The notes under the pieces are model-generated. The model had not been told where the DNA came from, did no database searches, and saw only the letters and a program-made list of their open reading frames with translations. The translations under genes were made by a program, and so were the position numbers. Shown here in pieces: positions 11,701 to 43,121 of a stretch of DNA of 64,000 nt. Position 1 is the first letter of the stretch, and every line of letters starts with the position of its first letter. The DNA is from Nitrospiria bacterium (GTDB lineage: Bacteria; Nitrospirota; Nitrospiria; JACQCE01), in contig DATIZH010000027.1 in assembly GCA_035517195.1 (NCBI GenBank), positions 67,581 to 131,580 of the forward strand, written 5' to 3'.

Positions 11701-14700
11701 GACCACCCACAGGGCGCTGGTCACATCGGGGATCTCGCTCAGGCGGCCGAGCAGCACGTCCTGTGAAATGGGATTGGCGGCAAACTGCGCCTGCGCCAAC
11801 GGCGGCTGAACGGCGGCGAGCACGCTCACCTCGTCGATCAGCCCCTGGAAGTAACTGCCGGACGGCCGGGCGCCGATCATCAGGGCGTTCTTCGATCCGC
11901 AGCCGGTCATCGTGCCCGTATAGGTCACCGTCTGTTTCAGCGCGCCGTTGACGTAGAATTTCATCTGGCCCAGCGTGCCGTCGAACGTGACGGCGACGTG
12001 CTGCCACGCGTTGAGCGACAGCGACGTGCTGCCCTGCCAGCTCCAGCTGCAGCTCGTCCCCCTGGTCATGACGGCGGCTTGCAACACGCCCTTGTTGATC
12101 CCCATCTGATAGGCGCTTTCCTTGTTCACGATGATGGCGCTGGACGGGAAGGCCTGCGGATAGACCCAGGCCTCCATGGTCAGCGCGGAACCGCTGAGAT
12201 TGAGGGAGGCGGGATTGGCCGCCGTGGAGGCCGACCCGCCCGTAAACAGCACCCCATTTCCGACAATGCCGGGTTGCCCCGCCGTCGTCCCGTTGGCGGT
12301 GAGCGTCAGATTATTGCCGTTGCCGGAGCTGTCGAGCAGGGGGCCCGTCTCCTCGAGATGCCACTGACCCTTGAGGGCCGTCGTCGGTGGCAACACGGCC
12401 GGGGCCGACCAGCCGGCAATCGGCGTCCAGGTCCGCCATTGGGACACCGCCCCTTCGGCGTCGACAAAGAGAGTGCCGCCGAATCCCTGCCAGGCCAGAT
12501 CGAACGGCCGGGCCTGCGTCGCGTTGAGGGACGGCACCGCGCCGACCACCTGCGGGGCGGCGTTCCCGGTTGTGGCCCAGGCCGAGCCGTCCCAGATCGA
12601 GACGGACAGTTGACCGACGTTCGAGACGACGCCGGCCGCCATGCGATCCGTGGAATGATCGGCCGCCAGCCTCACCGTCCTCACGCCGCCGGCAGCGGCG
12701 GTCAGCCCGATCGGCAGTGACTGCGATGCGCCCCAGGTTGTGCCGTCCCATGTCCGGAAGTCGGGCGTGGACGAGCTCGAATCGGCCCAGACGATCACGG
12801 CCTGGCAGGCCGGCAAGCCCTTGGTGCAGGAATCCTCCGTATAGGCGCCGTCGAAGACCTGGGCCTGGATGCTGGAGCCATTCATCGTCAGGAGCTGCTC
12901 GTGGCCGAAGGTGTTGGTCACGCCATCCCAGACCAGGGCGTTGATGGCACCGGACGCGTCCTCATACAGCAGAACGATCTCATTGCTCCCGGGTCGGGGC
13001 ACCAGGCGCACCCAGAGGATGGGGCTCGTCGTATTCAGAGAGACGGTCGGGACGCTTTCCGCGCTCCACGCCGAGCCGTTCCAGACGCGGTAATGAGGCA
13101 GAGCCGAGCCGGTGAGCCCGTAGACCGCCAGCGCCTCGCCGGACAGTCCCTCGTAGGCGATGTCCACGCTGCGGGGCGAGGGAATGGCGCCGATGGGTCC
13201 GGTGGAGGTCGTCGCCGTCAGCGGGGGGCCCCACGCAGCGCCGTTCCAGACGAGCAGGCTCAACGCTCTGTTGACATCGATCACTCCCAGCGTTTTCTCG
13301 GGCGAGATCGGGCTGGCCCGCAGCACCGTCCAGCGCGGCTCGCCGGAGTTCGCGCCCACGCCCGCCTCAGCCGTCCAAGACCCGTTGGCCTGCAACAGCC
13401 GGTATTTGGGTTCGGACGAGCCGGACACGCCGTAGGCCACCATCGGCGTGGCGACAAGCGAGCCGACGTAGAAATTGGCCGGCAAGCTCGCCCCGCCGTC
13501 CGGGTTGGTCACGATCATCTGCCGGTAGCCGATGGGCGTGCCGGTGGGAATGGAGATCGTGCAATCGATCTCGGTGGTGGGCGTGGTCCCGTTGTTGGCG
13601 CAGGAGCCGGCCCCGGTAATATTCGGATCGTTGACCCACGCGCTGCCGTTATAGGCCAGGATCGCCACTGTCGCCCCGCTCTGGAAGTTGGCACCGGTCA
13701 ACGTGAGCGACAGGGTGGTCGTGCCGGGCAGCGCGCTGGTCGGAGCGACGGACGCCACGACGGGCAGATCGAGCGTAAATTGCCAGTTGGCGTTGTTGGC
13801 ACAGGAATCGGAGGCGGGATCGATCACGGAGTTGACCGCCGTGATCACCTGGCCGCCCCCCGTGACAATCGCCGTCGAGTCGGTCACATTGACATAATCG
13901 ACCGCCTGTGATCCGGTGACTTTGAGAAACCAGGTCTGTGACGGCGCCGTACTCCTGAAAAAAATGCGCGTGGACGCCGACTGTCCGTTCCAGTTGACGT
14001 TGCCAACGTTGTAGGTCGCCCCGGCCAGGTATTGCACCCTCACGTGGCCGGTGATGATGGTATAGTTGCCCGTCACGTCGGCGGGCGACGCGAAGATGAC
14101 CCCGGGCGTGAACGACACGTTGCAGCCCGGATCGTCGGCGCCCGACGCGTTCGTAATGGTCAGGTTGTCAAAGGCCGCCGGCCCTGTCATCGCGCCGGTC
14201 AGGGTTTGGAGCGCGGTCCCATTGAGAATGACCGTGCCCGTCCCCGCGGTGAAGGCGCCGTTGTTGACCCAGCCGCCGCCGACGCTCACGCTGCCGGACC
14301 CGCCGTCGAGCGTGGTGGACGCCGCCACCGACACAGTGCCGCTGATCGTGTGCGCGGCCGGGCCCAGTCCGAAGGTCCCGCCGGTCAGGCTCAACGATCC
14401 CACCGTCATTGCGCCGGACAACTGTACCGCGCCGGCGCCGGCTTTCGTCACGGCGAAGGCTCCGGTGATCGTATTGGAGAAGGCGACGGAGCCGCCGGCC
14501 GCCGCCTGGAGGATGACATCCTTGTTCAACGAGACCGCGCCGGAGAAGGTCGAGGGATCGGCCGTGTTGCCGCCAATGGCCGCGGTCCCGCTGTTGCCCG
14601 CACGCACGGTGATCGGCCGCCCGATTGTGTAGGCGCCGTTGGTCAGCAGCGCGACGTTGGCATTGCCGGCCGCCGTATCACCGACCAGGATTGCTCCGCC

Positions 14701-17700
14701 TGCCGAATTGCCCAACGCGCCATTTCCACTCGAAGGCGCGGCGGCGGCAACGAGCAGGTTCCCCGCCAGCATCGATGTGGCGCCAGCGTAGCTGTTGCCC
14801 GCATTCGACAACGTCACCGTGCCGGCGCCGACTTTGGTCAGCCCTCCGGCCCCGGTCATGACGCCGCTGAGCGTCATGTCGCCCGCCCCACCCGCCGCAG
14901 CGGTGGAGGCCAGCGTGACCGGTCCGCTGTACGTCGCCGCCGTGCCGCTGCCGTTGACGAGCGCGCCGTTGGCGCCCACCCCCGCCCCGTTGAGCGTCAA
15001 GGGCTCGGCCGTCGCCAGCGTCATGCCATTCAGATCCAGCGTCGCGCCGCTGCTCACGACGGTGCCTCCGGCCGTCGTTCCAAGCGGGCTGTTCGGCGGG
15101 CTGCCCGCGGCCCCCAGTTTCAGGGTGCCGGCGCCGACCGTCGTCATGCCGGTGTAGCTGTTGTTGCCGTTCGACAGTGTCAGAGCATTGGCGCCGACTT
15201 TGGTCAGGTTAAAGGCGCCGCCGATCACTCCGGCGACGGTGAGATCCCCCGATCCCCCGAGTGAGCTGTTGCTGCCCAGCGTGACCGGTCCGCCGTAGGT
15301 CGCCGCCGTGCCGCTGCCGTTGACGAGCGCGCCGTTGGCCCCCACCCCCGTCCCGTTGAGCGTCAAGGGCTCGGCCGTCGACAGAGTAACTCCATTCGCA
15401 TCCAACGTCGCGCCGCCGGCCACGGTCGTGTTGCCGGTAATCGTGCCCAGCGGTCCGTCGGTTCCATCCCCCGCCGCACCCAGTTGCAGGGTCCCCTGGT
15501 TGATTGACGTCGCCCCGCTGTAGGTATTGTTCCCCGCCAGCGTCCACGTTCCAGTCCCCGTCTTGGTCACCGTGCCAGTCGTCGTCCCGATCACGCCGCC
15601 GACCACGCCGCCGCCCGCGCCGCCGAGCGTCAGATCCATTCCAGCGCCAGTGATCCCGCCGCCGAGCGTCAGGCTGCCCGCGGACGAGCCGATTGTGCTC
15701 GGAATGGCCAGGACAATCGGCCCGGCAAAGCTGTTCGTCCCACTGCTGTTATTGATGGCTCCCGCGGTGCCCGCCGCCCCCGCCCCATTGATCGTGACGG
15801 TTTCGGCCGTGCTGTAGGTGATCCCTCCGGAAAAACTCAATGAGGCTCCGCTGCTGACCGTCGTGGCGCCAAGATTAGAGCCGAGCGCGTTGTTTGCCGC
15901 AGCGGTCAGAATGCCCTGACTGATCAGCGTGGCGCCCGAGTAGCCGTTGTTTCCCGCCACCGTCCACGTCCCCGTGCCTTGCTTGACCAGCGCGACCGTG
16001 CCGCTGCCGTCGCTGATGACCCCCGAGAACGTCGTTGAGCCGTTATTCCCGCCGGTGGTCAGGGTGATCGCCCCCGCCGCGCCGCTCGTCACGGCGCCGC
16101 CCGCCGGGCTGCCGTCCCCCAACGAGCCGATCGTCTCCGTCCGGCCGTTCAGATCCAGCACACCGGAGCTCGCGATCGTCACCGCCGCCGCGTCCGCAAT
16201 CTGATTGGCATTAATCAGCTTGACCGTGTCGCTCCCCGTCCCATCCCCGATCACCAAGGCGCCGGGGACCGCATTGAGCCCCGCCGTCTTGCTCAGGTCC
16301 AGCTCCCCCCCATTGACCGTCGTGGTCCCGCTATAGGTGTTGGCGGCCGTGCCCGCCAGCGTCAGCGTTCCCACCCCGTTCTTGGTCAGCCCCCCCGCGC
16401 CGCTGATCACGCCGGCCAGGCTCACTGTCTGCCCGTTCGTGTCGATGACCCCCGTGGCCGTCAGGGTCACCCCCCGGGCGGCCGGCGACGTGATCGTGCC
16501 GGCGGCCTGCAACGTCCCGCCGGTAAAGATCAGGGTGTTCGAGGCGGTGCCGCTGCCCAGGGCGCTCGAGCTGTTCGCACTGAGCGTGCCCGCGCTGATC
16601 GTCGTCGTCCCGCTGTACGTGTTGACCGCCGTCAGGCTCAGCGTTCCCGTCCCCTGCTTGATGATCTTCCCGCCCCCGCTGATCACTCCGGAATAGGTGG
16701 TGCTGGTCGCATCACCAACGGTCAGCGTGTTCGCTACCAGTGTGACATTGCCCCCCGTCGCCCCGCCGCCTGACAGCGAGCTGATCGTCTGATTGGCCGT
16801 CAGATTGAGCGCCGCGCCCGCAACATTGGCCATGATCACCGCGCTGCTGCTGGCGATTGCATTGGCCACCCCCAAACGCAGCGTTCCCGCGTTAACCATC
16901 GTCGTTCCAGTGTAAGAGTTCACGCCAGTCAACACTTCTATCGCCGTGGCCGCACCCTTTTTGACCAATCCGCCCGTCCCGCTGATGATCCCGGCATAGG
17001 TGGCGGTGCCCGCTACCACGCCGCCCAGGGTGAGCGTGCCCGCGCCTAAGGAAATGTTCCCCCCGTTTACTCCGCCTCCCGTGAGCGAGCCGATTGTCTC
17101 CGACGTGCCGTTCAAGTCCAGCAGGACGCCCGCCGTGTTGGCCAATGAGACCGTCGCCGTGTCGGTGATCGCATTGCCGCCGGCCAGTCGCAGCGTCCCC
17201 CCGCTGATCGTCGTGGTTCCCGTATAGCTGTTGGTGCCCGACAAAATCAGGATGCCGTTGCCGGCTTTGATGAGATTGCGGGCGCCGCCAGCCTCGCTGA
17301 TTGTTCCGCTGATCGTCAGCGTCTCCGCCGCATTGGTGACGGTGACCGTGCGGTTTGCCGACAAGGTAATCGGAAGGTTGATGGTATTCGATCCCGAGGC
17401 GGTGCTGTCCGTCAGATTACCGCCGAGGGTGACGGCGTTGCCGGATAGCGTATAGCCACTGCCCGAAATGGTGATGATGAACGTCGCGCCCGCAATATCG
17501 TTATTATTGGACAGTTGGGCCGCCCCGCCTGGGAAGACCACGGTGTCGCCGGACACCGGCGCTGTCCCTCCCCAGTTGGCGGCGGTCGACCAATTGTTAT
17601 CCGTTCCGCCGCCGGTCCACGTCCGTGTCGCCGCCCATCCATCGCCGGCCGAACTCAGCAGCAGCGCCAGCACCACGGCTCCGATGAACAGGAAGGGATT

Positions 17701-17787: not shown

Positions 17788-17890
17788 AGACCTGCCGCGC
17801 AGCGGTGAACGTTGCCCGGGGCGCTCACTCTGTCCGGGGAGCTTCCTCATCGGACTGGTTGTCCAGTCGGTCTTGCGGGAATCGGGGGCT

Positions 17891-17919
17891 ATTGTACGAA
17901 ATTCAGGCCTTTTTTCCAA
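17891..17919 (-). promoter_or_regulatory. Proximal sigma70-like promoter of the giant gene
   Basis: The minus strand reads TTGGAA (17,919-17,914), a 17-nt spacer, then TACAAT (17,896-17,891). It sits in a locally AT-rich stretch about 100 nt upstream of the ATG at 17,787. Confidence 0.5.
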
Positions 17920-17920
17920 C

Positions 17921-17960
17921 AAAAAAACCCATACCATTCCCCCGGGGGGACTGGTACAGG
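17921..17960 (-). terminator. Rho-independent terminator / attenuator upstream of the giant gene
   Basis: The minus-strand RNA reads CCUGUACCAGUCCCC-loop-GGGGAAUGGUAUGGG. That gives a stem of about 15 bp with one mismatch and two G-U pairs. It is followed immediately by UUUUUUU (plus-strand A7 at 17,921-17,927). Confidence 0.7.
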
Positions 17961-18153
17961 CTGGCCCTCGTTGGCCCTGCTCCATTTCGACCACTTCGGC
18001 GGCGGTGCTGCCCTATCCCAGAGCCCATATTCAGGGGGGACGTAGGCCACCCGCTCTGCGACCCGGCCTTTCGACCGGGATTGCTCTTCTCGGTGGTGCG
18101 TCTGGATCCCTGGTCACGGCCACCGACGACCACGGCCGCAACCTTGCCATTGC
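17961..18153 (-). promoter_or_regulatory. About 190 nt of structured, non-coding, GC-rich RNA between a promoter and a terminator; candidate riboswitch or sRNA
   Basis: It lies between the promoter at 18,160-18,187 and the terminator at 17,921-17,960. It contains a 7-bp hairpin capped by a GAAA tetraloop, CCCGGUC-GAAA-GGCCGGG (18,062-18,079). The hairpin is flanked by AGAGCAAUCC and GGGUCGCAGAGC. A long irregular hairpin follows, then UAGGGCAGC. ORFs overlapping this stretch have no coding character. Confidence 0.4.
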
Positions 18154-20982: not shown

Positions 20983-21064
20983 GACCGGACTCCAGCCCTC
21001 ATAGCACAGCATGGATCGCCAATGCAACACAAACCAGGGCCGGCGGGCAACGTCCGGCGCCGTG

Positions 21065-21094
21065 TTGACTTGTCCCCGCGAATTCCATTACACT
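21065..21094 (+). promoter_or_regulatory. Sigma70-like promoter of the PD40 lipoprotein pair
   Basis: It reads TTGACT (21,065-21,070), an 18-nt spacer, then TACACT (21,089-21,094). The -10 ends 11 nt before the ATG at 21,106, so the leader would be very short. Confidence 0.45.
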
Positions 21095-21105
21095 TTTTCG
21101 CGTCC

Positions 21106-22068
21106 ATGGTGCTCCGCCGATTCCACTTCGCGGTTGTCGTGCTCGGCCTCCTCGTCGCCGGTTGTCAGTGGACCGAGGGCATGCATTTTGACTTTGTCGG
21201 GCAAGAGAGCCGCGTGACCTACCTGACGCATGATCAATCCGACCACCTGACGCCCACCTGGAGTCCCGACGGGTCCAGAATCGTCTTCGTGTCCAACCAA
21301 TCGGGGAGCTACAAGCTCTGGCTGATGAACCGGGACGGGACGGGGCTCACGCAATTGACGGCGGGGAAGGGCGAGGAACGCTATCCCGCGTGGAGCCCGG
21401 ACGGCGCTACGCTTGCCTTTGCGTCGGATCGCTCGGGCAATTGGGATATCTGGGCTTTGGCGGTGGGGGACCCGCAGGCTCCGGCCCGGCAATTAACGAC
21501 GCATCCGCGCGCCGATCTGGCCCCTGCCTGGAGCCGGGACGGCCGAAAAATCGCCTTCGTCTCTTATCGGGATTTCGAATACAGCATTTATACGATGAAC
21601 GCCGACGGCAGCGACCAACGCAAGCTCACCACCGGCGGGAACGGCGACTGGGGGCCGACCTGGAGTCCGGATGATCACGCCGTGGTCTTTGTCTCCACCC
21701 GTTCCGGCAACGGCGACCTCTATGAGATCAACGCCGAGGCGACACCCATGGGCCCCTACCGTCGCCTGACCTCAACGCCCCAGCGGGACATGATTCCCGC
21801 CTGGAGCCCGGATGGGAGCAAAATCGCCTTTGTGTCGCAACGGAGCGGCACCCGCGACATCTGGGTCATGAATGCCGACGGGACGAATCAGATCCAGCTC
21901 ACGCGGGACTTGTCCGGTCACTGGGAGCCGCGGTACAACATCGACAGCCATTTTATCGAAGGCATCGGCTATTTCTATCTCGCCTGGAGCCCCGACGGGA
22001 ACAGTCTCGCCTATACAGCCGTCAATCATGATGGGCGGGGTGAGATCGCGGTTCTGCGCCTGCAGTAG
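21106..22068 (+). CDS. TolB-like PD40 (WD40-like) beta-propeller lipoprotein
   Basis: The internal ATG at 21,106 gives MVLRRFHFAVVVLGLLVAGC, with a lipobox. The (P/A)WSPDG...(I/L)(A/V)F(V/A)S.RSG...(I/L)W motif repeats seven times. Confidence 0.8.
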   Translation: MVLRRFHFAVVVLGLLVAGCQWTEGMHFDFVGQESRVTYLTHDQSDHLTPTWSPDGSRIVFVSNQSGSYKLWLMNRDGTGLTQLTAGKGEERYPAWSPDGATLAFASDRSGNWDIWALAVGDPQAPARQLTTHPRADLAPAWSRDGRKIAFVSYRDFEYSIYTMNADGSDQRKLTTGGNGDWGPTWSPDDHAVVFVSTRSGNGDLYEINAEATPMGPYRRLTSTPQRDMIPAWSPDGSKIAFVSQRSGTRDIWVMNADGTNQIQLTRDLSGHWEPRYNIDSHFIEGIGYFYLAWSPDGNSLAYTAVNHDGRGEIAVLRLQ

Positions 22069-22069
22069 G

Positions 22070-23020
22070 GTGCGCCGGCGCCCTGCACAACGACCGCCAT
22101 GGCAACGTTTCGTGGCGTGGGGACTCATCCTGACCGCCGCGGCGGGTTGCACCTACCTCCGTCCGTCGCACCTCCTCTTCAGGACGGTCAGCCTCCAGTC
22201 CATTCCCGGCCTGAGCGGCGATCAACGCTTTGCCTCCTGGAGTCCCGACGGAACCAGCCTGGCGGTGATGTCAAACGCTTCGGGCAACTGGGACATCTGG
22301 ACCGTGCGTCCGGATGGGACGCAACTCCGGCAGCTGACGCACGAGCCCTCGAGCGAATATACCGCGGCCTGGAGCCCGGACGGCCGCTGGCTGATCTTCT
22401 CCTCCGACAGGGTCCACCGGATCTGGCCGAACCTGTGGCGGCTCAATCCCCAACAGCCCGAACCGGCTGAGCCGTTCAGCCAGGCCAACGGCAAATACTT
22501 TTTCCCCGCCTGGAGTCCTGACGGCACCCAGCTCGCTTTTCTCTATCTGCCCACCGGCCCGCCTTCGTTTGAGCTCAGGACAATGGCCGTCCCCGGCCGG
22601 AAGAGTCGCATGCTGTCCAATAACGGCATCGTCTTTTCCCCGCCCGCCTGGAGTCCTGACGGGACGCGGATCGCGTTTGCCTCGAACCGTTCGGGCACGT
22701 CGAAGCTGTGGATCTTGACCCTCGACACCGGGGCGTTGCGTCAACTCCTGCGCGGTCCGTCCCAGGAGATGCAGCCGAGCTGGAGTCCCGACGGACGGTT
22801 TCTCGCGTTCACGTCGGACCGGTCCGGCAACTCCGACATCTGGGTCATGGATCTCTCCGCGACCGGCGCGGGCGACGGAGCCGAACCGCCCCTCCAGCAG
22901 CTGACCCGCTCTCCCTCGACCGATCATTATCCTCAATGGAGCCCTGACGGGCGTCGCCTCGTCTTCGTGTCCACACGCTCCGGCCACGAAGCGCTCTGGC
23001 TGATCGATCTGGCCCCATAA
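22070..23020 (+). CDS. Second TolB-like PD40 beta-propeller lipoprotein (paralogue)
   Basis: An in-frame GTG at 22,070, 1 nt after the upstream TAG, gives VRRRPAQRPPWQRFVAWGLILTAAAGC, with a lipobox. WSPDG repeats follow. The longer track ORF starting at 21,872 overlaps the preceding gene. Confidence 0.75.
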   Translation: MRRRPAQRPPWQRFVAWGLILTAAAGCTYLRPSHLLFRTVSLQSIPGLSGDQRFASWSPDGTSLAVMSNASGNWDIWTVRPDGTQLRQLTHEPSSEYTAAWSPDGRWLIFSSDRVHRIWPNLWRLNPQQPEPAEPFSQANGKYFFPAWSPDGTQLAFLYLPTGPPSFELRTMAVPGRKSRMLSNNGIVFSPPAWSPDGTRIAFASNRSGTSKLWILTLDTGALRQLLRGPSQEMQPSWSPDGRFLAFTSDRSGNSDIWVMDLSATGAGDGAEPPLQQLTRSPSTDHYPQWSPDGRRLVFVSTRSGHEALWLIDLAP

Positions 23021-29479: not shown

Positions 29480-30559
29480 TCATTGCTCAGCCGATACCGA
29501 GAGGAGTTGAAAGATTTGCACCCGTTGATTGTAGGTGTCCGCCACATAAATGCGGTTGTGTTGATCGATGGCGATCCCGGTCGGCAGCCAGAAACGGCCA
29601 GCGACCGATCCCCCGCCGCCCACATGCAGGAGCAGCTGCCCTTGTTGATCGAAGATCTGGACCACGTCGTAGAGGCCGTCAACCACGTAAATGTCGCCCT
29701 CCGTGTCCACGGCCACGCCCTTCGGTTTGGAGAAGGTGCCGATGGTGGTCCCCAACCGGCCGAACATCCGGAGAAACTTCCCCTGCCGGTCGAACAATTG
29801 GATGCGAAAATTCAATGAATCGGTGACATAGATCGTTCCGTTGCGGTCGACCGCCACCTGGCTGGGGAAGTTAAATTCACCCGGACCGCCGCCGCGCTTG
29901 CCGATGGTCATCACCTTACCGCCGTCGGGTCCATACACGACGATTTTGTGGCCGCCGACGTCCGCGGCATAGAGCCGGCCGTCGGGACCAACGGCGATGC
30001 CGGCCACCCGCGTATAATCCCCCGGCTGACCGATCCGGCCGAGCAATCGTCCATTCGCGTCAAAGAGGAAGATGTCATTCAACGTCGAATCGGACACGTA
30101 GATACGGCCCCGGTCGTCGGCAGCGACACCGACCGGCGCGATCAGTCGGGCCGTGCCGATCAGGTGGAAGATCTGATGATAGTCCTTCTTGTTCAGGTCA
30201 AACACGTGCACAACCTGCTGGCCGGTGTCCGTGACGAGGATCCGGCCACGGCCGTCGGAAAACACGGCACTGGGCCGCACCAAGGGGATCGGCGCCTTGC
30301 CGATGATCCGTCTGAACAACCGGCCGAACAGGGAGGATTTTTCCCCCGCATCCGCCGAGGTGGCCAGTTGTCCCACCAATTCGATCCGGGGCGGATCGGG
30401 CGGCTTCGGCCAGACCAGCGGGGGCGACGCGGATGAAGCCGCGCCAGAGGCGCACCCGCCTAACAAGACGATCGACAGCACGATCCCCCCCGCCCTGACG
30501 GACCACGCGCCGTCGCTCATCGCGCGGATCCCATGCCGAGGGCTCCCCATCCGAATCAC
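29480..30559 (-). CDS. NHL-repeat six-bladed beta-propeller lipoprotein
   Basis: Lipobox LLGGC is present. The N-terminal motif is WPKPPDPPRIELVG. NHL-type blades recur, for example GRILVTDTGQQVVHVFD, GRIYVSDSTLNDIFLFD, GRLYAADVGGHKIVVY, GTIYVTDSLNFRIQLFD, GDIYVVDGLYDVVQIFD and NRIYVADTYNQRVQIF. The GTG start forms a GTGA overlap with the upstream stop. Confidence 0.85.
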   Translation of the reverse strand: MIRMGSPRHGIRAMSDGAWSVRAGGIVLSIVLLGGCASGAASSASPPLVWPKPPDPPRIELVGQLATSADAGEKSSLFGRLFRRIIGKAPIPLVRPSAVFSDGRGRILVTDTGQQVVHVFDLNKKDYHQIFHLIGTARLIAPVGVAADDRGRIYVSDSTLNDIFLFDANGRLLGRIGQPGDYTRVAGIAVGPDGRLYAADVGGHKIVVYGPDGGKVMTIGKRGGGPGEFNFPSQVAVDRNGTIYVTDSLNFRIQLFDRQGKFLRMFGRLGTTIGTFSKPKGVAVDTEGDIYVVDGLYDVVQIFDQQGQLLLHVGGGGSVAGRFWLPTGIAIDQHNRIYVADTYNQRVQIFQLLSVSAEQ

Positions 30560-32457
30560 AGTGAAAACTGCCTCGTCAGCCGGAAATAGAGATTGTGAGA
30601 CACGGTCGAGCTCAGTTCGTTGAAGTAGTTAAATTCATACTGGAGGTTGAACATGACCAGTCCGATCTGGTACGTCCCGTTCACATTGGCGGTCGCAATG
30701 GTCATGTCGGGCCGGCCAGGATCCGTCATCAGGCGATCCTCATACCGGCCGTCGACAGTAATCTGCAGATCCGGCAGCATCGGCGGCACGGTCCAGTTCA
30801 CGCTGGTAAAGAAGGAGTTGTAATCATCGCCCTGGGCCGTGGTGATATGCGACGAGAGGCCCCCGCCGACCCCCCACCCCCGCCATCCATAGAGGAGATC
30901 CGCGCCCACGTCAATCGTTTGGATATTATCGACGCCTCCTGAAATCGCCGTGTCCCCCGCGCCCGCGTGCACCGTGAGCGTATCCCCGCGTAACAGCAGT
31001 TCACGGAAATAAGAGCTCGTCGCATCCGTCCGGATCATGTTGGTGAATTCAGTCGTCCCATCGCCGCTGAGTTGGTCGTTATAGTAGCCGCTATAGGTGC
31101 CCGTGACCGTGATGTATTGCGTCTTGGTGTTGGTCGCTTGCATCATCCAGAAGGTGTTGACATTGCTCTGGTTGGAGCCCGACGCGATGGTGTTGTTCAT
31201 CGCGACCCCCCCGCTCACGTTGATCCGGACCAGCTCATAGAGTTGAAAATAGGTGACGGACGACGCGAAATTATGATAGAGCGAGGTGGATTTCGTGTGC
31301 GGTCCCGACGTCGTGGCATCGGTGGTGGTGTTGGTCAGACCCGCCGTATCGCTGAAGGCGGCGTTCAGGTTCAGGGTCGGGCGGTAGAGGACGAGGACGC
31401 TGCCGTACCCCGAGGCGACCTGGGAGTAGTCAAGATCGAGGTACGAACCGCGACCCGACACCGTGATGTCGAACTGCGGCGTCGGGCGATAGAAGACGTC
31501 GAACCCGCCGATATGCCGGTCATTCGTATCCCTGGTAAAGTCGTACGTGAAGTTGCTGTTCAGCTTCAACGACGGGCGGTAGAACACGGTAAACCCCGCC
31601 GTCGACACATTGGCCACGATGCCCGGGACGACCGGCGTCTGACTGGAGAGGCCGGTGGTGTAGGAGGCGCGCACATTGCTGCTGATTTCGGGCGTCCACT
31701 GGCTGTCCGCCGTCATCCGCCCCCCCACGCTCATGTCGGTCCCCGAATTGTTAAATTGCTGCACGCCCGACATCGAAAGGTTCCAGGTCAGGACGGTGTT
31801 CTTAATGATGTATCGGTAGGGATATTGGTCCGTGGCGGTCAGGCTGCCGCCGAATGTCCGTGACGTGTTGTCGCACGAGGGCGGGGACAAGGGGGTGCAG
31901 CTGTTGGTTTCCACGGTCGAATAATAGACGTTCAGGTGAAGCTGCGGCAGTTTCCAGACGCGTGGCAGGTCCCACACGAGATTGTAGATCGACACGGTGA
32001 CCTTGCCGCTGGGCACCGGCGCGGATAAGGTATTGGATTCCATCTCCTGGGTCGTCCGTTGCGCGCTCAGGGCCAACGGCATCACTCGAGGGAAGAAGGT
32101 CAGCGATCCGAAGTAGTTGTAGACCTGGGTGTTCGACTCCAGGTCACCATAGCGATCGTCGTTGCTGAACGTGAAATTCAGTTGGTAGAAGCCCAGCGCT
32201 TCACGGAAGATCGCCCCATTGGAGCCCACCGTCACGAGCTCACGCAAATCGTTGTACTGGGAGTCCGTGCCGCCGGTGGTGCTGACCTCGATTAGCCGAT
32301 ACTCCAGCGTCGCCTCGCCGGTCAGATCGATCAGTCTGGCTTCGGCGCGGGACGCCGGCCAGAGCAGCCCCATGAGCCCCATGACAACGACCCACCCCCA
32401 GGGGCCGTTTCCGTTCCCTCGCACTGTTGGACCCCGTCTCTGTCCCGTCGCCCGCAT
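30556..32457 (-). CDS. Predicted large outer-membrane beta-barrel protein (633 aa)
   Basis: The signal peptide reads ...WVVVMGLMGLLWPASRAEA. Composition is Tyr/Thr/Ser/Asn/Gly-rich throughout, with alternating hydrophobic patterns. The aromatic-rich C-terminus reads NLYFRLTRQFSL. I did not recognise a named family. Confidence 0.55.
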   Translation of the reverse strand: MRATGQRRGPTVRGNGNGPWGWVVVMGLMGLLWPASRAEARLIDLTGEATLEYRLIEVSTTGGTDSQYNDLRELVTVGSNGAIFREALGFYQLNFTFSNDDRYGDLESNTQVYNYFGSLTFFPRVMPLALSAQRTTQEMESNTLSAPVPSGKVTVSIYNLVWDLPRVWKLPQLHLNVYYSTVETNSCTPLSPPSCDNTSRTFGGSLTATDQYPYRYIIKNTVLTWNLSMSGVQQFNNSGTDMSVGGRMTADSQWTPEISSNVRASYTTGLSSQTPVVPGIVANVSTAGFTVFYRPSLKLNSNFTYDFTRDTNDRHIGGFDVFYRPTPQFDITVSGRGSYLDLDYSQVASGYGSVLVLYRPTLNLNAAFSDTAGLTNTTTDATTSGPHTKSTSLYHNFASSVTYFQLYELVRINVSGGVAMNNTIASGSNQSNVNTFWMMQATNTKTQYITVTGTYSGYYNDQLSGDGTTEFTNMIRTDATSSYFRELLLRGDTLTVHAGAGDTAISGGVDNIQTIDVGADLLYGWRGWGVGGGLSSHITTAQGDDYNSFFTSVNWTVPPMLPDLQITVDGRYEDRLMTDPGRPDMTIATANVNGTYQIGLVMFNLQYEFNYFNELSSTVSHNLYFRLTRQFSL

Positions 32458-38377: not shown

Positions 38378-39256
38378 TTACTTCTGATGGCAGGTCAGGC
38401 ATAATGCGCTGTTGCGATTGGAGGCGCGGAGAAAGGGATCGCGCCCTTCGATATTGCCTTCGTCAGGATTGTGCGGGTCATGGCACGAGGCGCATTGCAC
38501 TTTGTCCCCCGCAAAGGTTTGCACGCCGTTGGGGAACTCTCGACCGCCGTCTGATTTCATGATCATCGGCTGGTTAAAACCGGGGTCCTGGGCGTACGTC
38601 GGAAACGGCATGGAGATGGGGTGATCGTCCCGCAGATCGCGCGTCAGATACCGGATGGTCGCATCATGCGCGCCGCCGATGCCGCCATAGGCGCCTGAGA
38701 TCCGGTTGTGACATTTCCCGCACGTGTCGCTGCCGATGGAACCTTCGGCGTCCAACCGGTAATGCGTTCCAGAATCGCTCCAATCGTGGAATTTCGGCTT
38801 GTTCGCCACCGCATCCACCGCGACCGTGCCGTCGTGGCAGGACAGGCAGGCCAATGACACACCGTCGGGCCCGTTGGACAACGCATTGGGCGTGGCTTTT
38901 GAATCCAGGCTCACGCTGTTGAAGACCTGGTATTCTGCCGGACCGCCGCCGCCCCCTGCCGCACCGTCCGTCGGATTCTGCCGATTCCACATCGGGGCCA
39001 GGTTACTGCCATTGTGCGGCGTATGGCAGTAAATGCACGCCTCGCGATAATCGTTGAAGGTGGCGCCGGTCATGGGACCTGTTTCAGTCCCGTATCCACG
39101 CATATTGAAAAAGCTCAGGTCGTGGCGGGAGCCGAGGATGGAATTGCCCCTGGCCGTCACGGCCATCATGACGACCGACGCGCAGATGGCGACGGCGACA
39201 AAAACCGCCGATCGCCTTGCGCGACGGGGATGCTGTGCCCCCCACCCCATGGGCAT
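38378..39256 (-). CDS. Pentahaem c-type cytochrome, paired-CXXCH type (292 aa)
   Basis: The sites are CIYCH, CLSCH, CGKCH, CASCH and CLTCH. The shared signature is RHDLS...CIYCHTPHN...WNR...CLSCHDGTVAV...LRDDHPISM...CASCHDPH. The protein ends in CLTCHQK followed by the stop. A signal peptide is present, and GGGAGGTGG precedes the start. Confidence 0.85.
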   Translation of the reverse strand: MPMGWGAQHPRRARRSAVFVAVAICASVVMMAVTARGNSILGSRHDLSFFNMRGYGTETGPMTGATFNDYREACIYCHTPHNGSNLAPMWNRQNPTDGAAGGGGGPAEYQVFNSVSLDSKATPNALSNGPDGVSLACLSCHDGTVAVDAVANKPKFHDWSDSGTHYRLDAEGSIGSDTCGKCHNRISGAYGGIGGAHDATIRYLTRDLRDDHPISMPFPTYAQDPGFNQPMIMKSDGGREFPNGVQTFAGDKVQCASCHDPHNPDEGNIEGRDPFLRASNRNSALCLTCHQK

Positions 39257-39390: not shown

Positions 39391-39431
39391 GGAAAATCGC
39401 CCCATAGAGCGCGTGTTGTGACTGGCAAAGA

Positions 39432-39462: not shown

Positions 39463-40776
39463 TCAGCCCTCAAACTGCTGAGCCCCCTGGACGGGTCTCA
39501 ATTCGACCACCCCTCCCTTCTGGCCCAGCCAGATGGTGCCGGTCGGCGCCGGTGCGATCGCGTAGACGTCATCGCCCAGCAGACCGTCGGCTGTTGTCCA
39601 ACTCTTCCACTGCGATGAGGCAGGAGCCGCCGGATCAAAACGAGAGAGGCCATGGTTGGTCCCAAGCCAGAACACTCCGTGCTGATCGATTTCAATCGCG
39701 TAGACGATATTGCCGGCCAGGCCGTCCCGTGTGGCATAATTTCTCCATGTGCCGGCGCCGCCCGCGCCGTTCAACTCAAACCGGGAGAGCCCGCCGCCCC
39801 ACGTCCCGATCCATTTCACTCCATCACGGTCGATGGCGATGCAGAAGACATAATTCTCATTGTAGGTCTCCTTCCCCTTCTCATCCAGCACGCTCAAGTC
39901 ATGCCGCGTCGAGTATCCACCGGTCATGGTGCCCATTCCGGTGTTCTTGCTCCGATTCAATGCCAGGAGGTTGGACGCGCCCAGGCCGTCCACATGACGC
40001 CAGGTCCGCCATTGCCGCCCGGGCGGTGACGAGAGATCGAATCGACTGACGCCCGATTCCGTGCCGAACCAGACCGACTGATCATGATCAACCGCCACCG
40101 CATAGACCCACCGGTTGGCCAATCCATCCTTTTCGTTGTAGGTGGTGAACTGCTTCCCCTCGGCGGCGCGGGGGTTGTACCGGCTTACTCCGTCCCAGGT
40201 GCCCACCCACATGGAGCCGTCGGCGGCAAAATCCATGTCGTAGACCCAGAAATCCGACAGACCGTTGGCGGGAAGAAAATTGACCCATTGTCGGCCGGCG
40301 GTCACGGACGGGTCATAACGAACGAGCCCCCCGTTGTTCGTGCCGAACCATTTCGCCCCGTCGCGGGGATCGACATTGATCGTGAAGATATAATCACTCG
40401 CCATGCGATTGCCCACGCTGGCGCGCGTATAGGTCCGGATCAGATCGCCCGTCTTGTGGTTGACGGCCAGGATGCCGCGTGACGTGCCCACCCACAACGT
40501 GTCCCCCTCGACTTTCAACGCTCTGACGTAGCTTCCCTGACCCGTATCAAACGAGGAATAGGCGACATAGTCACCCGATGGCGGGGTGATCCGATGCAGG
40601 TGCAGCGTCGGGGCAGGTGTCGATGAGGCGCCCGGTCCGCACCCTCCGGCCGTGAATCCCAACAGGAATGCGGCCGCGCCTACCGCCACCCCTTTCCAGG
40701 CGCCGCCAACCCGGCGAACGGAACGTCTCAAACGTCTCATATGTGCCTGTCGAGAATCGTCCTGTAATGCGCGCAT
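39463..40776 (-). CDS. Reg_prop (two-component-regulator propeller) repeat lipoprotein with no kinase or other output domain
   Basis: Blades recur with W(V/F)GT..GG(L/V)(S/V)R(Y/F)(D/E), for example LWVGTSRGILAV, KWFGTNNGGLVRYD, MWVGTWDGVSRYN, VWFGTESGVSRFD, KWIGTWGGGLSRFE, FWLGTNHGLSRFD and IWLGQKGGVVEL. Lipobox FTAGGC is present. ATG 40,776 sits 10 nt after a TACAAT -10. An alternative start is ATG 40,740. The 521-aa track ORF overlaps the divergent gene. Confidence 0.8.
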   Translation of the reverse strand: MRALQDDSRQAHMRRLRRSVRRVGGAWKGVAVGAAAFLLGFTAGGCGPGASSTPAPTLHLHRITPPSGDYVAYSSFDTGQGSYVRALKVEGDTLWVGTSRGILAVNHKTGDLIRTYTRASVGNRMASDYIFTINVDPRDGAKWFGTNNGGLVRYDPSVTAGRQWVNFLPANGLSDFWVYDMDFAADGSMWVGTWDGVSRYNPRAAEGKQFTTYNEKDGLANRWVYAVAVDHDQSVWFGTESGVSRFDLSSPPGRQWRTWRHVDGLGASNLLALNRSKNTGMGTMTGGYSTRHDLSVLDEKGKETYNENYVFCIAIDRDGVKWIGTWGGGLSRFELNGAGGAGTWRNYATRDGLAGNIVYAIEIDQHGVFWLGTNHGLSRFDPAAPASSQWKSWTTADGLLGDDVYAIAPAPTGTIWLGQKGGVVELRPVQGAQQFEG

Positions 40777-40786
40777 GGCTGACCCG

Positions 40787-40815
40787 ATTGTAAAAATTCC
40801 CCCCTTGCAAGTCAA
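40787..40815 (-). promoter_or_regulatory. Near-consensus sigma70 promoter of the Reg_prop gene
   Basis: The minus strand reads TTGACT (40,815-40,810), a 17-nt spacer, then TACAAT (40,792-40,787). Confidence 0.55.
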
Positions 40816-40863
40816 TGAGCCGATACGGCCCGGACAACCCCGGCCACCCCCCCGTCCAACCCA

Positions 40864-40892
40864 TTGACAATTGACTCCTGCTGTGTTACGAA
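40864..40892 (+). promoter_or_regulatory. Possible promoter of the c7-cytochrome operon (weak -10)
   Basis: It reads TTGACA (40,864-40,869), a 17-nt spacer, then TACGAA (40,887-40,892). It lies back-to-back with the Reg_prop promoter. Confidence 0.3.
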
Positions 40893-40960
40893 CGTGGGGT
40901 TTCGCGGTTGCTTCCCCATGAAGAGGGGCGGGGGACAGCAGGAGACTGGGGCGGCGATTG

Positions 40961-41323
40961 ATGAGAAAGTTCTGGTTACCATTGGGCTTCATCATCGGAT
41001 TTGGTCTCTTGTTTTCCTCCGGGTCCACTCTCGCGGGATTTTACGGCGATATGGTGCTGAACAGCAAGGCCGAAAAGCGGGGGATGCCGCCCGTCATTTT
41101 TCCCCATTGGTATCACCGCATTGAGTTCAAATGCAAGGTCTGCCATCCCGCCATCTTTGAAATGCGCTCCGGTTCGAACGACATTGACATGAACAAGATC
41201 ATCAGCGGCCAGTTTTGCGGCAAGTGCCACAATGGCACGATCGCGTGGAAGCCGGTGCAGTGCGCGCGCTGCCATTCCGGCCAACCCGGCCTGACCACCG
41301 GACCGCTGATGGGAGTCAAATAG
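40961..41323 (+). CDS. Periplasmic c7-type trihaem cytochrome
   Basis: The signal peptide is MRKFWLPLGFIIGFGLLFSSGSTLA. The domain reads PPVIFPHWYHRIEFKCKVCHPAIFEM...MNKIISGQFCGKCHNGTIAW...CARCH. That gives three CXXCH sites in the c7/nanowire-trihaem arrangement. The track start at 40,958 is a TTG, and the ATG follows at 40,961. Confidence 0.8.
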   Translation: MRKFWLPLGFIIGFGLLFSSGSTLAGFYGDMVLNSKAEKRGMPPVIFPHWYHRIEFKCKVCHPAIFEMRSGSNDIDMNKIISGQFCGKCHNGTIAWKPVQCARCHSGQPGLTTGPLMGVK

Positions 41324-41940
41324 TGCGAGGGTCACACGTTCGGCGTGTTGCCGGGGTCCTTACGGTCGGCGTGATCTGCGCCGTGTCGATCTATGCCTGC
41401 ACCTTTTTCGAGAAAACGTCAGCCTCGCCCAAGGCCCCCGAAGCCGCCGCCACCCCTCCCGCCCCTCCTCCAAGAATCGTGGCATCGGTCAATCAGGGAC
41501 AAACCGAGGAATATGAAGACCCGACCGACATTCCCACACCCGGACCTCCCTACGGCAAGGAAAACCGGGATCCGAACGTGGTGATGAGAAACTTTCCCGT
41601 CGATTCCGAGGGCAACATCGACTGGGTCAAGGCCTTTAAGGAGAACATCATTCATCCCCATGAGTCCCTGGATTTGAACAAGCCCCCGATGCCGCCGTTC
41701 AATTTCGACATTGAAATTCCTGCGGTGGGAGCCATGCCAAACGTCATTTATCCTCACTATCCCCACACGTTCTGGCTCGATTGCGGCAACTGCCATCCCA
41801 GCATCTTTGTGATGAAGCGGGGGGCCAATCCGATTTCCATGGTCAAAATCGTCAACGGCGAGTTCTGCGGCCGCTGTCATGGCCGTGTGGCCTTCCCGAT
41901 CTCCAACTGCACCCGCTGCCACGTCAAGCCAAAGCAATAA
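41323..41940 (+). CDS. Lipoprotein with a Pro/Ala-rich linker and a C-terminal c7-type trihaem domain
   Basis: GTG 41,323 overlaps the upstream TAG by 1 nt and gives VRGSHVRRVAGVLTVGVICAVSIYAC, with a lipobox. The linker reads PKAPEAAATPPAPPP. The domain reads VIYPHYPHTFWLDCGNCHPSIFVM...IVNGEFCGRCHGRVAF...CTRCH. Confidence 0.75.
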   Translation: MRGSHVRRVAGVLTVGVICAVSIYACTFFEKTSASPKAPEAAATPPAPPPRIVASVNQGQTEEYEDPTDIPTPGPPYGKENRDPNVVMRNFPVDSEGNIDWVKAFKENIIHPHESLDLNKPPMPPFNFDIEIPAVGAMPNVIYPHYPHTFWLDCGNCHPSIFVMKRGANPISMVKIVNGEFCGRCHGRVAFPISNCTRCHVKPKQ

Positions 41941-41957
41941 TTGCTTCATCCGAGGTT

Positions 41958-43121
41958 ATGACGCGCACTCCCCTGAGTCTGCTGGTTATACTCACGGCCG
42001 TTTCACTGCTCTCCTGCTACCGAAACACCCGGTCCACGGGGCCTGAAATCGTCGCGCCGACCGCGCAGGGCGGTCCGATCATCTGGCGCCACTTCTCCAC
42101 CGCCAATGATCCGGTCAAAACCATGACCATGGACGGGCCCAACCTCTGGATGGGCACGTCACGGGGCCTGATCCGTTTCAACACGCGAACCGGCGACTAC
42201 CAGACCTACAGTCCACGGAGCACCGGCGGCGGGATCGTCAGCCGGGGTATTTATGTGATCCGAGTCGATTCGAAGGGCAACAAATGGGTGGGAACCTACG
42301 GCGGCGGCCTGTCCAAATTCGACGGCACGACCTGGACGCACTACACGAGCGCGGATGGGTTGGGAGATAACTGGATCTACGACCTGCTCTTCGACAAACA
42401 CGGCGCCATGTGGGTCGCCACCTGGGACGGGGTGAGCGTGTTTGACGGCACGACGTTCAACACCTACCGGGTCAAGGACGGCCTGCCGGACAAGTGGGTC
42501 TACACGCTGTCACTGGACCAGGACAACGTCCTCTGGTTTGGCACGGAATCGGGCGTCAGTCGGTTTGACGGAACCACCTGGACCACCTTCACCCACAAGG
42601 ACGGGATCGGCGCCGACGTGGCCTCCGATTCTGGCGGCGGAACCGCCCAGTTCCCCGTCGGCACCACTCCGCCGGCGTCGAGCGGGGGCGCGGAGGGTGG
42701 CGACTACAATTACGGCTCCTCCTCATCCGCCCACCACCACATGAACCTTGAAAAGCAAAACACGGGCCCCAATCCCAACTTCATCATCTCATCGTTGGTG
42801 GACAATGAGAATCATAAATGGTTCGGAACATGGGGCGCCGGCGTGTCCCGTTACGACGGCAAAACCTGGACGACCTTCACCAAGGAGCAGGGGCTGGGGG
42901 GCAATTTCGCGCTCAGGCTCGCCCTCGATCCCCAGGGCCATGTCTGGGTCGGCACCGATGGCGGCGCCAGCTGGTTCGATGGCACACGCTGGCACACCAT
43001 TTCAACCGCCCAGGGTTTGCCGAGCAATTATGTGTTCTCTATCCTCTTTGACGATCGCGGTCACCGCTGGTTCGGCACGCTCAACGGCTTGAGCGTCTTC
43101 CGGGGCGCGCTGCCGGGCTAG
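41958..43121 (+). CDS. Reg_prop repeat lipoprotein (paralogue) with no output domain
   Basis: ATG 41,958 gives MTRTPLSLLVILTAVSLLSC, with a lipobox. Blades include LWMGTSRGLIRFN, KWVGTYGGGLSKFDG, MWVATWDGVSVFDG, LWFGTESGVSRFDG, KWFGTWGAGVSRYDG, VWVGTDGGASWFDG and RWFGTLNGLSVF. An insert carries SSSSAHHHMN. Confidence 0.8.
   Translation: MTRTPLSLLVILTAVSLLSCYRNTRSTGPEIVAPTAQGGPIIWRHFSTANDPVKTMTMDGPNLWMGTSRGLIRFNTRTGDYQTYSPRSTGGGIVSRGIYVIRVDSKGNKWVGTYGGGLSKFDGTTWTHYTSADGLGDNWIYDLLFDKHGAMWVATWDGVSVFDGTTFNTYRVKDGLPDKWVYTLSLDQDNVLWFGTESGVSRFDGTTWTTFTHKDGIGADVASDSGGGTAQFPVGTTPPASSGGAEGGDYNYGSSSSAHHHMNLEKQNTGPNPNFIISSLVDNENHKWFGTWGAGVSRYDGKTWTTFTKEQGLGGNFALRLALDPQGHVWVGTDGGASWFDGTRWHTISTAQGLPSNYVFSILFDDRGHRWFGTLNGLSVFRGALPG

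Follow-up and report, generated by a model that had tools for sequence, protein, structure and literature searches.

Gene organization of the locus

The window analysed here is the whole 64,000-nucleotide stretch of contig DATIZH010000027.1 (assembly GCA_035517195.1, positions 67,581 to 131,580 of the forward strand) from an uncultured member of the Nitrospiria, whose metagenome-assembled genome has a size of 1.72 Mb and is 71% complete; its near relatives belong to the Nitrospiria/Nitrospirota and many of them are of groundwater origin. At 39.4–43.2 kb the window carries two genes for c7-type trihaem cytochromes lying between two genes for Reg_prop β-propeller proteins. An earlier note, made from the letters of the DNA, had described these four genes as one divergent unit, and all four were found where it had placed them. 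Reg_prop genes at this site track the OmcE-homologue cytochrome cluster that begins next to them on the opposite strand, and not the c7 genes as such. The genes that will be needed throughout are the following.

39463..40776, minus strand: RegP1, a single Reg_prop β-propeller and probable lipoprotein (437 amino acids, aa, from the ATG at 40776; Pfam Reg_prop 65.5 bits)
40961..41323, plus strand: c7_1, a predicted soluble periplasmic c7-type trihaem cytochrome of the UetD/E/G type (120 aa; TIGR04257 67.3 bits)
41323..41940, plus strand: c7_2, a predicted lipid-anchored c7-type trihaem cytochrome (205 aa; TIGR04257 57 bits)
41958..43121, plus strand: RegP2, a predicted single seven-bladed Reg_prop lipoprotein (387 aa; Pfam 81.4 bits)
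38378..39256, minus strand: cyt292, a five-haem OmcE homologue outside the coordinates of the earlier note (match to PDB 7TFS)

The genes c7_1, c7_2 and RegP2 are spaced as one operon: the GTG of c7_2 and the TAG of c7_1 have one base in common (spacing −1 nucleotide, nt), as the earlier note had read it, and RegP2 starts 17 nt past c7_2. For c7_1 an alternative TTG start at 40958 is possible. RegP2 runs with its 3′ end 4 nt into the convergent ugd gene, and the next gene downstream of RegP1 on the same strand is that of cyt292. The locus as a whole is embedded in conserved housekeeping synteny (ugd, rsmI, tusA, argB, hslUV).

The trihaem cytochromes

Both c7 proteins pass TIGR04257 (nanowire_3heme; cut-off 40 bits), both contain three CxxCH motifs, and for both the best match in the PDB is 3OV0, the structure of GSU1996 with its four c7-type domains (E 6e-39 for c7_1 and 1e-24 for c7_2). 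The cut-off of the PpcA-type equivalog NF043011 (120 bits) was not reached by c7_1 (21.1 bits), and c7_2 gave no match to this model. The three CxxCH motifs, two distal histidines and one methionine (H145, H148 and M173 in c7_2) are invariant among 16 relatives; here and in all counts across relatives given below, related genomes are not independent samples and the numbers are to be read with this in mind. The identity of c7_1 to its copies in 80 species ranges from 54 to 98%.

Read by eye, the signal peptide of c7_1 has no cysteine and that of c7_2 ends with ...SIYAC, a plausible lipobox. In c7_2 there follow a Pro/Ala linker, two conserved segments (EDPT..PGPP..ENR and IDWVKAFK..IHP.ESL) and the trihaem domain; its AlphaFold2 model is of low confidence (predicted local distance difference test score, pLDDT, 51.7). 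The TIGR04257 scores and these signal peptides agree with the pair of one soluble and one lipid-anchored c7 protein that had been proposed. The likeness to the GSU1996/PpcA-family c7 cytochromes of Geobacter consists in the trihaem c7 domain with two histidines and one methionine as distal ligands. The differences are that here there is one domain per protein, whereas GSU1996 has four, and that c7_2 adds a predicted lipid anchor and a conserved N-terminal extension of ~110 residues.

The propeller proteins

The Reg_prop assignments of RegP1 and RegP2 were confirmed with Pfam PF07494 (cut-off 20.4 bits), and the Pfam scan of both proteins gave Reg_prop alone, in agreement with the absence of an output domain noted before. 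The AlphaFold2 model of RegP2, computed from an alignment of 54 sequences (pLDDT 87.7, predicted TM-score 0.85), has seven four-stranded blades, blade 7 being closed by the N-terminal strand. In the Foldseek ranking of this model BT4663, BT3049 and BT4673 come first (PDB 4A2L/4A2M, 3V9F and 3OTT), followed by virginiamycin B lyase (Vgb) and PorZ; by sequence, the closest solved relatives of RegP1 are the sensor propellers of BT4663 and BT3049 (E 6e-36). With the PorZ model NF052228 (cut-off 260 bits) the two propellers reach 58.8 and 40.7 bits and thus stay below the cut-off. The signal peptide of RegP2, read by eye, ends with ...LLSC, a plausible lipobox, and that of RegP1 with ...TAGGC, an atypical one, of which xGC is kept in orthologues. 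The start of RegP1 is ambiguous: a public protein collection uses the ATG at 40740, which gives 425 aa (P0121).

Between blades 4 and 5 RegP2 has an insert which contains the histidine run AHHHMN and which the earlier note had pointed out in the second propeller. The features in question are these.

42591..42770, plus strand: insert of RegP2 between blades 4 and 5, residues 212–271 (AlphaFold2 model and alignments)
42729..42746, plus strand: AHHHMN of RegP2, residues 258–263 (sequence)
39889..39906, minus strand: RHDLSV, core of the insert motif of the RegP1 lineage, containing the histidine that is invariant family-wide (alignments)

Every member of the family has such an insert, of variable length and with a conserved C-terminal end, so that it does not distinguish RegP2. 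In the RegP2 model the insert is mostly disordered. H260 and N272 are invariant family-wide and H213, H261 and K266 nearly so. The histidine run is present in the insert as had been described, but the triple histidine is confined to the genus and H260 is the only invariant histidine in it. RegP1 and proteobacterial lipoprotein Reg_props have in common the insert motif NTG[MLF]G..[RH]HDL..YN[EP]NYVF.

With the Bacteroides hybrid two-component sensors BT4663, BT3049 and BT4673 and with PorZ of type IX secretion, their best sequence and fold matches, RegP1 and RegP2 share the Reg_prop repeat and the seven-bladed fold. The Bacteroides sensors, however, combine two propellers and a Y_Y_Y domain with a membrane span and with modules for kinase, receiver and DNA-binding functions, whereas RegP1 and RegP2 have one propeller on a predicted lipid anchor. 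PorZ has a secretion C-terminal domain, whereas RegP1 and RegP2 have nothing beyond the propeller.

That the closest solved relatives are propellers of hybrid two-component sensors speaks for the main rival explanation of the locus, namely that a two-component system has been split up and its ligand-sensing half, in the periplasm, is formed by the Reg_prop proteins. These would pass on a substrate or redox signal to a kinase encoded elsewhere, which would control the cytochrome genes. A regulatory role has also been proposed for two genes described as 'periplasmic ligand-binding sensor domain' near a cytochrome cluster of Tenderiales (10.1101/2022.05.06.490989; PMC9900912). We nevertheless consider a detached sensor unlikely. 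RegP1 and RegP2 are predicted single-propeller lipoproteins of 387–437 aa that lack the Y_Y_Y domain, and their neighbours are a cytochrome gene and ugd. No kinase, regulator or output domain was found in the genes around the locus and in the long open reading frames at 49–62 kb (1–19 kb and 23–26 kb lay outside the scan), the remaining scanned genes of the window being cluster or housekeeping genes. A kinase hidden in a mis-called adjacent frame, a possibility that the earlier note had raised, has no room, because RegP1 is flanked by the cytochrome gene and RegP2 overlaps the end of ugd. The sigma-54 motif TGGCAC-N5-TTGCW was absent from the intergenic regions, and overall its matches were fewer than expected by chance.

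The neighbouring OmcE/Uet-type cluster

Past RegP1 the minus strand encodes, in this order, cyt292, an NHL propeller, a four-haem cytochrome (cyt418), a Wzy_C-TPR protein, a SurA-like peptidyl-prolyl isomerase (PPIase), a 633-aa protein (30556–32457), a second NHL propeller and a 1,105-aa multihaem cytochrome (cyt1105). The 633-aa protein is a barrel candidate for which the Pfam scan gave no match. The cytochrome cyt292 is a sequence homologue of the filament subunit OmcE (PDB 7TFS, E 3.6e-19; 9YUQ of D. soudanensis, E 8.9e-18).

Gene sets of this kind have been described twice. The cluster uetABCDEFGHIJ is known from Candidatus Tenderia electrophaga and Tenderiales, and from Gallionella too (10.1101/2022.05.06.490989; PMC9900912). 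In Ca. Tenderia it codes for the tetrahaem cytochrome UetA, the PPIase UetB, the barrel UetC, the c(7) trihaem cytochromes UetD/E/G, the domains of which have GSU1996 as best match, the cupredoxin UetF, the NHL proteins UetH/I and the undecahaem cytochrome UetJ (10.1101/2022.05.06.490989). The minimal omcE cluster of the Desulfuromonadia consists of two multihaem cytochromes, two β-propeller lipoproteins, OmcE and a large barrel (mBio 2026, PMC13712944). In the window c7 genes are likewise found together with an OmcE-like cytochrome, a PPIase, a barrel candidate, NHL propellers and a large multihaem cytochrome.

With the uet cluster the window has in common a UetA/OmcE-like tetra- or pentahaem cytochrome, the PPIase, a candidate for the large barrel, the NHL propellers and the large multihaem cytochrome, and where uet has several c(7) trihaem cytochromes with GSU1996-like domains c7_1 and c7_2 fit the slot; in proteobacterial uet loci c7_1-like and c7_2-like genes occupy the UetD/E/G positions. 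It differs from uet in that there are two c7 genes only, with the cupredoxin absent from the site, in that the c7 genes stand outside the cluster and are transcribed divergently from it, in that Reg_prop genes, one of them of a Tol-Pal-linked lineage, lie on both sides of the c7 pair, and in that a sigma-54 two-component pair is not nearby. The make-up of the minimal omcE cluster is also present, cyt292 being homologous to OmcE. Here the differences are that the corresponding two propellers of the window are NHL-type, the published ones having been compared as 'β-propeller lipoproteins' only; that the Reg_prop propellers and the c7 pair are extras unmentioned in PMC13712944; and that cyt292 has five CxxCH motifs, whereas OmcE has four.

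Judged by their sequences, c7_1 and c7_2 are GSU1996-type c7 proteins and counterparts of UetD/E/G, which is an already described kind. Comparison with the published uet and omcE gene sets shows that a cluster of this known kind can be expected to include periplasmic trihaem cytochromes such as these two, and the c7 pair, which is no new pairing, matches the trihaem genes of uet.

Distribution of the Reg_prop genes

A scan with a c7_1 profile, using one genome per species, yielded 80 loci. Reg_prop genes were distributed as follows.

c7 pair facing an OmcE homologue, 27 Nitrospirota species loci: at least one Reg_prop gene in 24
c7 pair without an OmcE-type cluster, 6 loci: Reg_prop gene in 0
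long (type-B) c7 arrays, many loci: Reg_prop gene in 0

The 24 loci have Reg_prop genes on both sides (5), upstream only (8) or downstream only (11). The slot 5′ of cyt292 on the same strand is filled by a Reg_prop gene in 19 of 19 genomes of four families, the source genome included, and the slot 5′ of the OmcE homologue is without a Reg_prop gene in five other families. Overlap between the upstream Reg_prop gene and the start of the gene for the OmcE homologue was seen in the two species examined (4 nt in our locus L125).

The c7_1-c7_2 pair itself is widespread among the 40 relatives compared. In several Nitrospiria families (f1, f4, f8, f9) it faces the cyt292-NHL-cyt418-PPIase-barrel-NHL-cyt1105 cluster, and in other families it is located away from the OmcE-homologue cluster, one such place being next to ugd/rsmI and two PD40 propeller genes. 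Two adjoining PD40 propeller genes are also present in the window (21022–23020); in one related family the PD40 genes abut the c7 pair and the whole OmcE-type cluster is missing from that site.

Most genomes contain a second, longer (type-B) c7 operon composed of one gene of the c7_1 type, two to four of the c7_2 type, a cupredoxin gene and the gene of a 430-aa repeat protein, which mirrors UetD-E-F-G of the uet cluster. In two of our loci (L047:8233-13718 and L050:4152-8271) a c7 operon codes for a cupredoxin, two c7_2-like proteins and two further c7 proteins, one of them small and soluble and the other a lipoprotein with Big_2 domains; the 430-aa protein between the two c7_2-like genes has about seven 50-aa repeats and no Pfam match.

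These distributions bear on the model of the earlier note, in which each c7 shuttle has a propeller of its own as ligand-binding partner, the four genes form a unit and the histidine run of RegP2 binds metal. A search for the four-gene arrangement in other genomes showed that it recurs across the whole family, as that model would have it; c7_2 and RegP2 are 17 nt apart; and a c7_1-c7_2-X-Reg_prop operon is found in ~16 species of the Manganitrophaceae and relatives. Yet we regard dedicated partnership as very unlikely. In several families the c7 pair persists without any Reg_prop gene, so that propellers and c7 cytochromes are not one co-evolving unit, and RegP1, which had been seen as a companion of the c7 pair, follows the OmcE homologue, its conserved neighbour, and not c7. 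The downstream Reg_props of the two groups are non-orthologous, and the HHH run is genus-specific and located in a disordered loop. From the proposed principle of propeller plus cytochrome it can be retained that propellers accompany cytochromes (24 of the 27 loci), but a strict c7-propeller pairing is not supported. A general c7-Reg_prop rule is ruled out by the type-B arrays, the six lone c7 pairs and five genomes of other phyla.

The X in the operon of the Manganitrophaceae and relatives is a 280-aa secreted protein encoded between c7_2 and the downstream Reg_prop gene (L031:11050-11892; L104:11155-11997). It has a weak match to RHS repeats, and in L031 there is an overlap of 4 nt between its stop and the start of the Reg_prop gene.

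Lineages and paralogues

In phylogenetic trees four different Reg_prop lineages fill the two slots. Approximately unbiased (AU) tests, for which the groups were set by position but after sight of the first tree, reject a single clade at either position, with p 1e-5 on the upstream side and p 2e-67 on the downstream side; the assumption of one ancestral Reg_prop gene per slot is rejected by the same tests.

RegP2 is nested (support 100/98) among Reg_prop genes that diverge from tolQ-tolR-tolA-tolB-pal, as they do in Ca. Manganitrophus SB1 and two other families; further members of this lineage are located beside rimO and trxB. As the tree places it, RegP2 is a recent recruit in one family from this Tol-Pal-linked lineage.

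RegP1 forms a clade (support 100/100) with the lipoprotein member of a tandem Reg_prop pair from four Uet-bearing proteobacterial genomes. The clade also takes in Nitrospiria genes that are flanked by hemA and hemC or by sucC and sucD, or that have rimO as a neighbour. A tandem pair of stand-alone Reg_prop genes beside Uet or cytochrome genes was found in four of five Uet-bearing proteobacterial genomes; in UBA6492 the pair is located directly 5′ of an NHL gene and UetA..J. These proteobacterial pairs fit the two 'periplasmic ligand-binding sensor domain' genes reported from Tenderiales. Among the top 120 homologues of RegP1 the name Tenderia is absent, those with a name being Nitrospirota.

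Two gene neighbourhoods favour the view that the propellers are detached sensors. In a Thiohalobacter metagenome-assembled genome (L178:8809-14425) the genes of a HAMP histidine kinase, a response-regulator-like protein (474 aa; the N-terminus was read by eye), a monohaem cytochrome and two Reg_props, the first a lipoprotein and the second signal-anchored, follow each other in one direction, and in Manganitrophus SB1 an OmpR/HisKA pair is found ~1 kb from the Tol-linked paralogue. The paralogues inside hemA-hemC and sucC-sucD operons, on the other hand, do not fit a sensor role.

The Thiohalobacter block lies between UetJ and two ccsBA-like genes (assigned by position) on one side and, on the other, a further cluster that codes for an NHL protein and for cytochromes with 3, 7 and 18 haems. 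In Ca. Manganitrophus (CP114555.1; L179:4756-11755) the gene order is cytochrome c assembly-family gene, hemA, RegP1-lineage Reg_prop, hemC, cobA/hemD, hemB; the hemA stop and the Reg_prop start have one base in common, and the hemA-Reg_prop-hemC insertion recurs in another genome (G013:C30, L076). In the source genome hemA and hemC are adjacent, and its best match to the Manganitrophus hemA-hemC Reg_prop is RegP1 (55%). In L180:5838-9232 and L074 (G007:C9) the member of the RegP1 lineage between sucC and sucD has one base in common with the upstream stop; the interior of sucC-sucD is an odd site for a secreted propeller.

Proposed function

From domain assignments, fold, gene order and phylogeny, which are shown, we infer the localisation of the proteins, the electron relay and the binding partners as follows. 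The locus would be the periplasmic side of an extracellular electron-transfer gene set of the Uet/OmcE type. Electron transfer through the periplasm is the most likely task of the soluble c7_1 and of c7_2, which is probably tethered to a membrane by its lipid anchor and Pro/Ala linker. The two would connect the inner membrane, in one direction or the other, with the machinery of outer-membrane barrel and OmcE homologue for which the opposite strand codes. RegP1 and RegP2 would be non-catalytic single seven-bladed propellers that most likely serve as binding or docking accessories of this machinery, with a cytochrome, haem or an envelope glycan as candidate partners, a role similar to the one that may be assumed for the NHL propeller lipoproteins, which belong to the accepted core of clusters of this kind. 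RegP1 appears to come from an old lineage tied to Uet clusters and haem, RegP2 to have been recruited recently in one family. We hold this reading, a Uet/OmcE periplasmic relay with Reg_prop binding or docking accessories, with moderate confidence. A function of the Reg_props in common with the cluster is suggested because paralogues were repeatedly recruited to the two slots, because reading frames overlap and because the linkage extends across phyla.

Several observations weigh against it. The source genome has five Reg_prop paralogues, and the other three, beside a tolQ/tolR-like pair, ppnK and tldD/pmbA (neighbours identified from N-terminal sequences), are not near cytochromes. Many paralogues in relatives lie beside tol-pal, ppnK, rimO, sucCD or tldD, and the family is therefore not specific for cytochromes. 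The closest relatives of RegP2, with rimO/trxB or tolQRA as neighbours, are not linked to cytochromes, and RegP2 is missing from one genome of the same family (G006). In five genomes of other phyla with c7 arrays no Reg_prop gene at all was found. In the source genome, finally, a promoter-like and a weak terminator-like site suggest that RegP1 is its own transcription unit.

40787..40815, minus strand: promoter-like TTGACT-17-TACAAT 5′ of RegP1 (10 of 12 consensus matches; pattern match only)
39398..39411, minus strand: weak terminator-like hairpin with T-rich tail 3′ of the RegP1 stop (pattern match only)

Relative to the promoter-like site a start at the ATG at 40776 would be nearly leaderless.

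Some of these observations are what one would expect if RegP1 and above all RegP2 were general envelope lipoproteins, engaged in Tol-Pal function or outer-membrane upkeep, that became neighbours of the cytochromes by gene shuffling. Five paralogues per genome in diverse contexts, the nesting of RegP2 in the Tol-linked lineage, its loss from G006 and the position of the locus inside the housekeeping synteny from ugd to hslUV are all in favour of this explanation. It is hard, however, to put down to chance that four independent lineages occupy the same two slots and that Reg_prop genes are present in 24 of 27 loci with the OmcE-type cluster versus 0 of 6 without it; the overlap of the Reg_prop gene with that of the cyt292 type and the cross-phylum linkage to Uet are further points against it. 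We consider mere neighbourhood quite unlikely.

With respect to RegP1 the reading as binding or docking accessories can be taken one step further, if tentatively. It is conceivable, but on balance doubtful, that the RegP1 lineage is an unrecognised periplasmic factor that handles either haem or cytochromes of the c type, perhaps while Uet/OmcE conduits or filaments are being docked or assembled, with the invariant histidine of the insert as working site. Such a role would explain the sites at which the lineage is found: in the hemA-hemC operon, beside proteobacterial monohaem cytochromes and Uet genes, and 5′ of the OmcE homologue.

The c7 cytochromes are an ordinary part of a known system, and the Reg_prop propellers are a recurring accessory of it with a putative role. 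What sets the locus apart is the Reg_prop accessory with its four-fold recruitment and the Uet- and haem-linked RegP1 lineage; it is no new kind of system. In the library searched no paper was found that ties 'regulator propeller' to multihaem cytochromes, nothing useful came to light on the neighbours of GSU0616-0619, and in the published papers on aquifer Nitrospirota and Manganitrophaceae these genes are unmentioned. Assembly and anchoring of Uet/OmcE-type conduits and nanowires are an open question (PMC13712944), and the role of the accessory propeller lipoproteins of such clusters is not known. Reg_prop is a second propeller family that recurs as their companion, being present at 24 of the 27 Nitrospirota loci and in four Uet-bearing genomes of Proteobacteria, and one of its lineages spans phyla with a conserved histidine-containing insert and flags an odd link to a haem biosynthesis operon in manganese-oxidising Nitrospirota.

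Further observations

The Reg_prop lineage divergent from tolQ-tolR-tolA-tolB-pal-cpoB is represented in SB1 (L087:526-9116), in L042, L043 and L083 and in the source genome (C50:4436-5656). In SB1 an OmpR/HisKA pair and a DegP-like protease are encoded within 3 kb after the Tol-linked Reg_prop gene. A further Reg_prop lineage lies directly 3′ of ppnK (NAD kinase, by N-terminal sequence) in the source genome (C14:29778-31897) and in L077, L079 and L082.

At the other end of the window the minus strand (1–17994) contains an open reading frame of at least 5,998 aa that continues past the window start.

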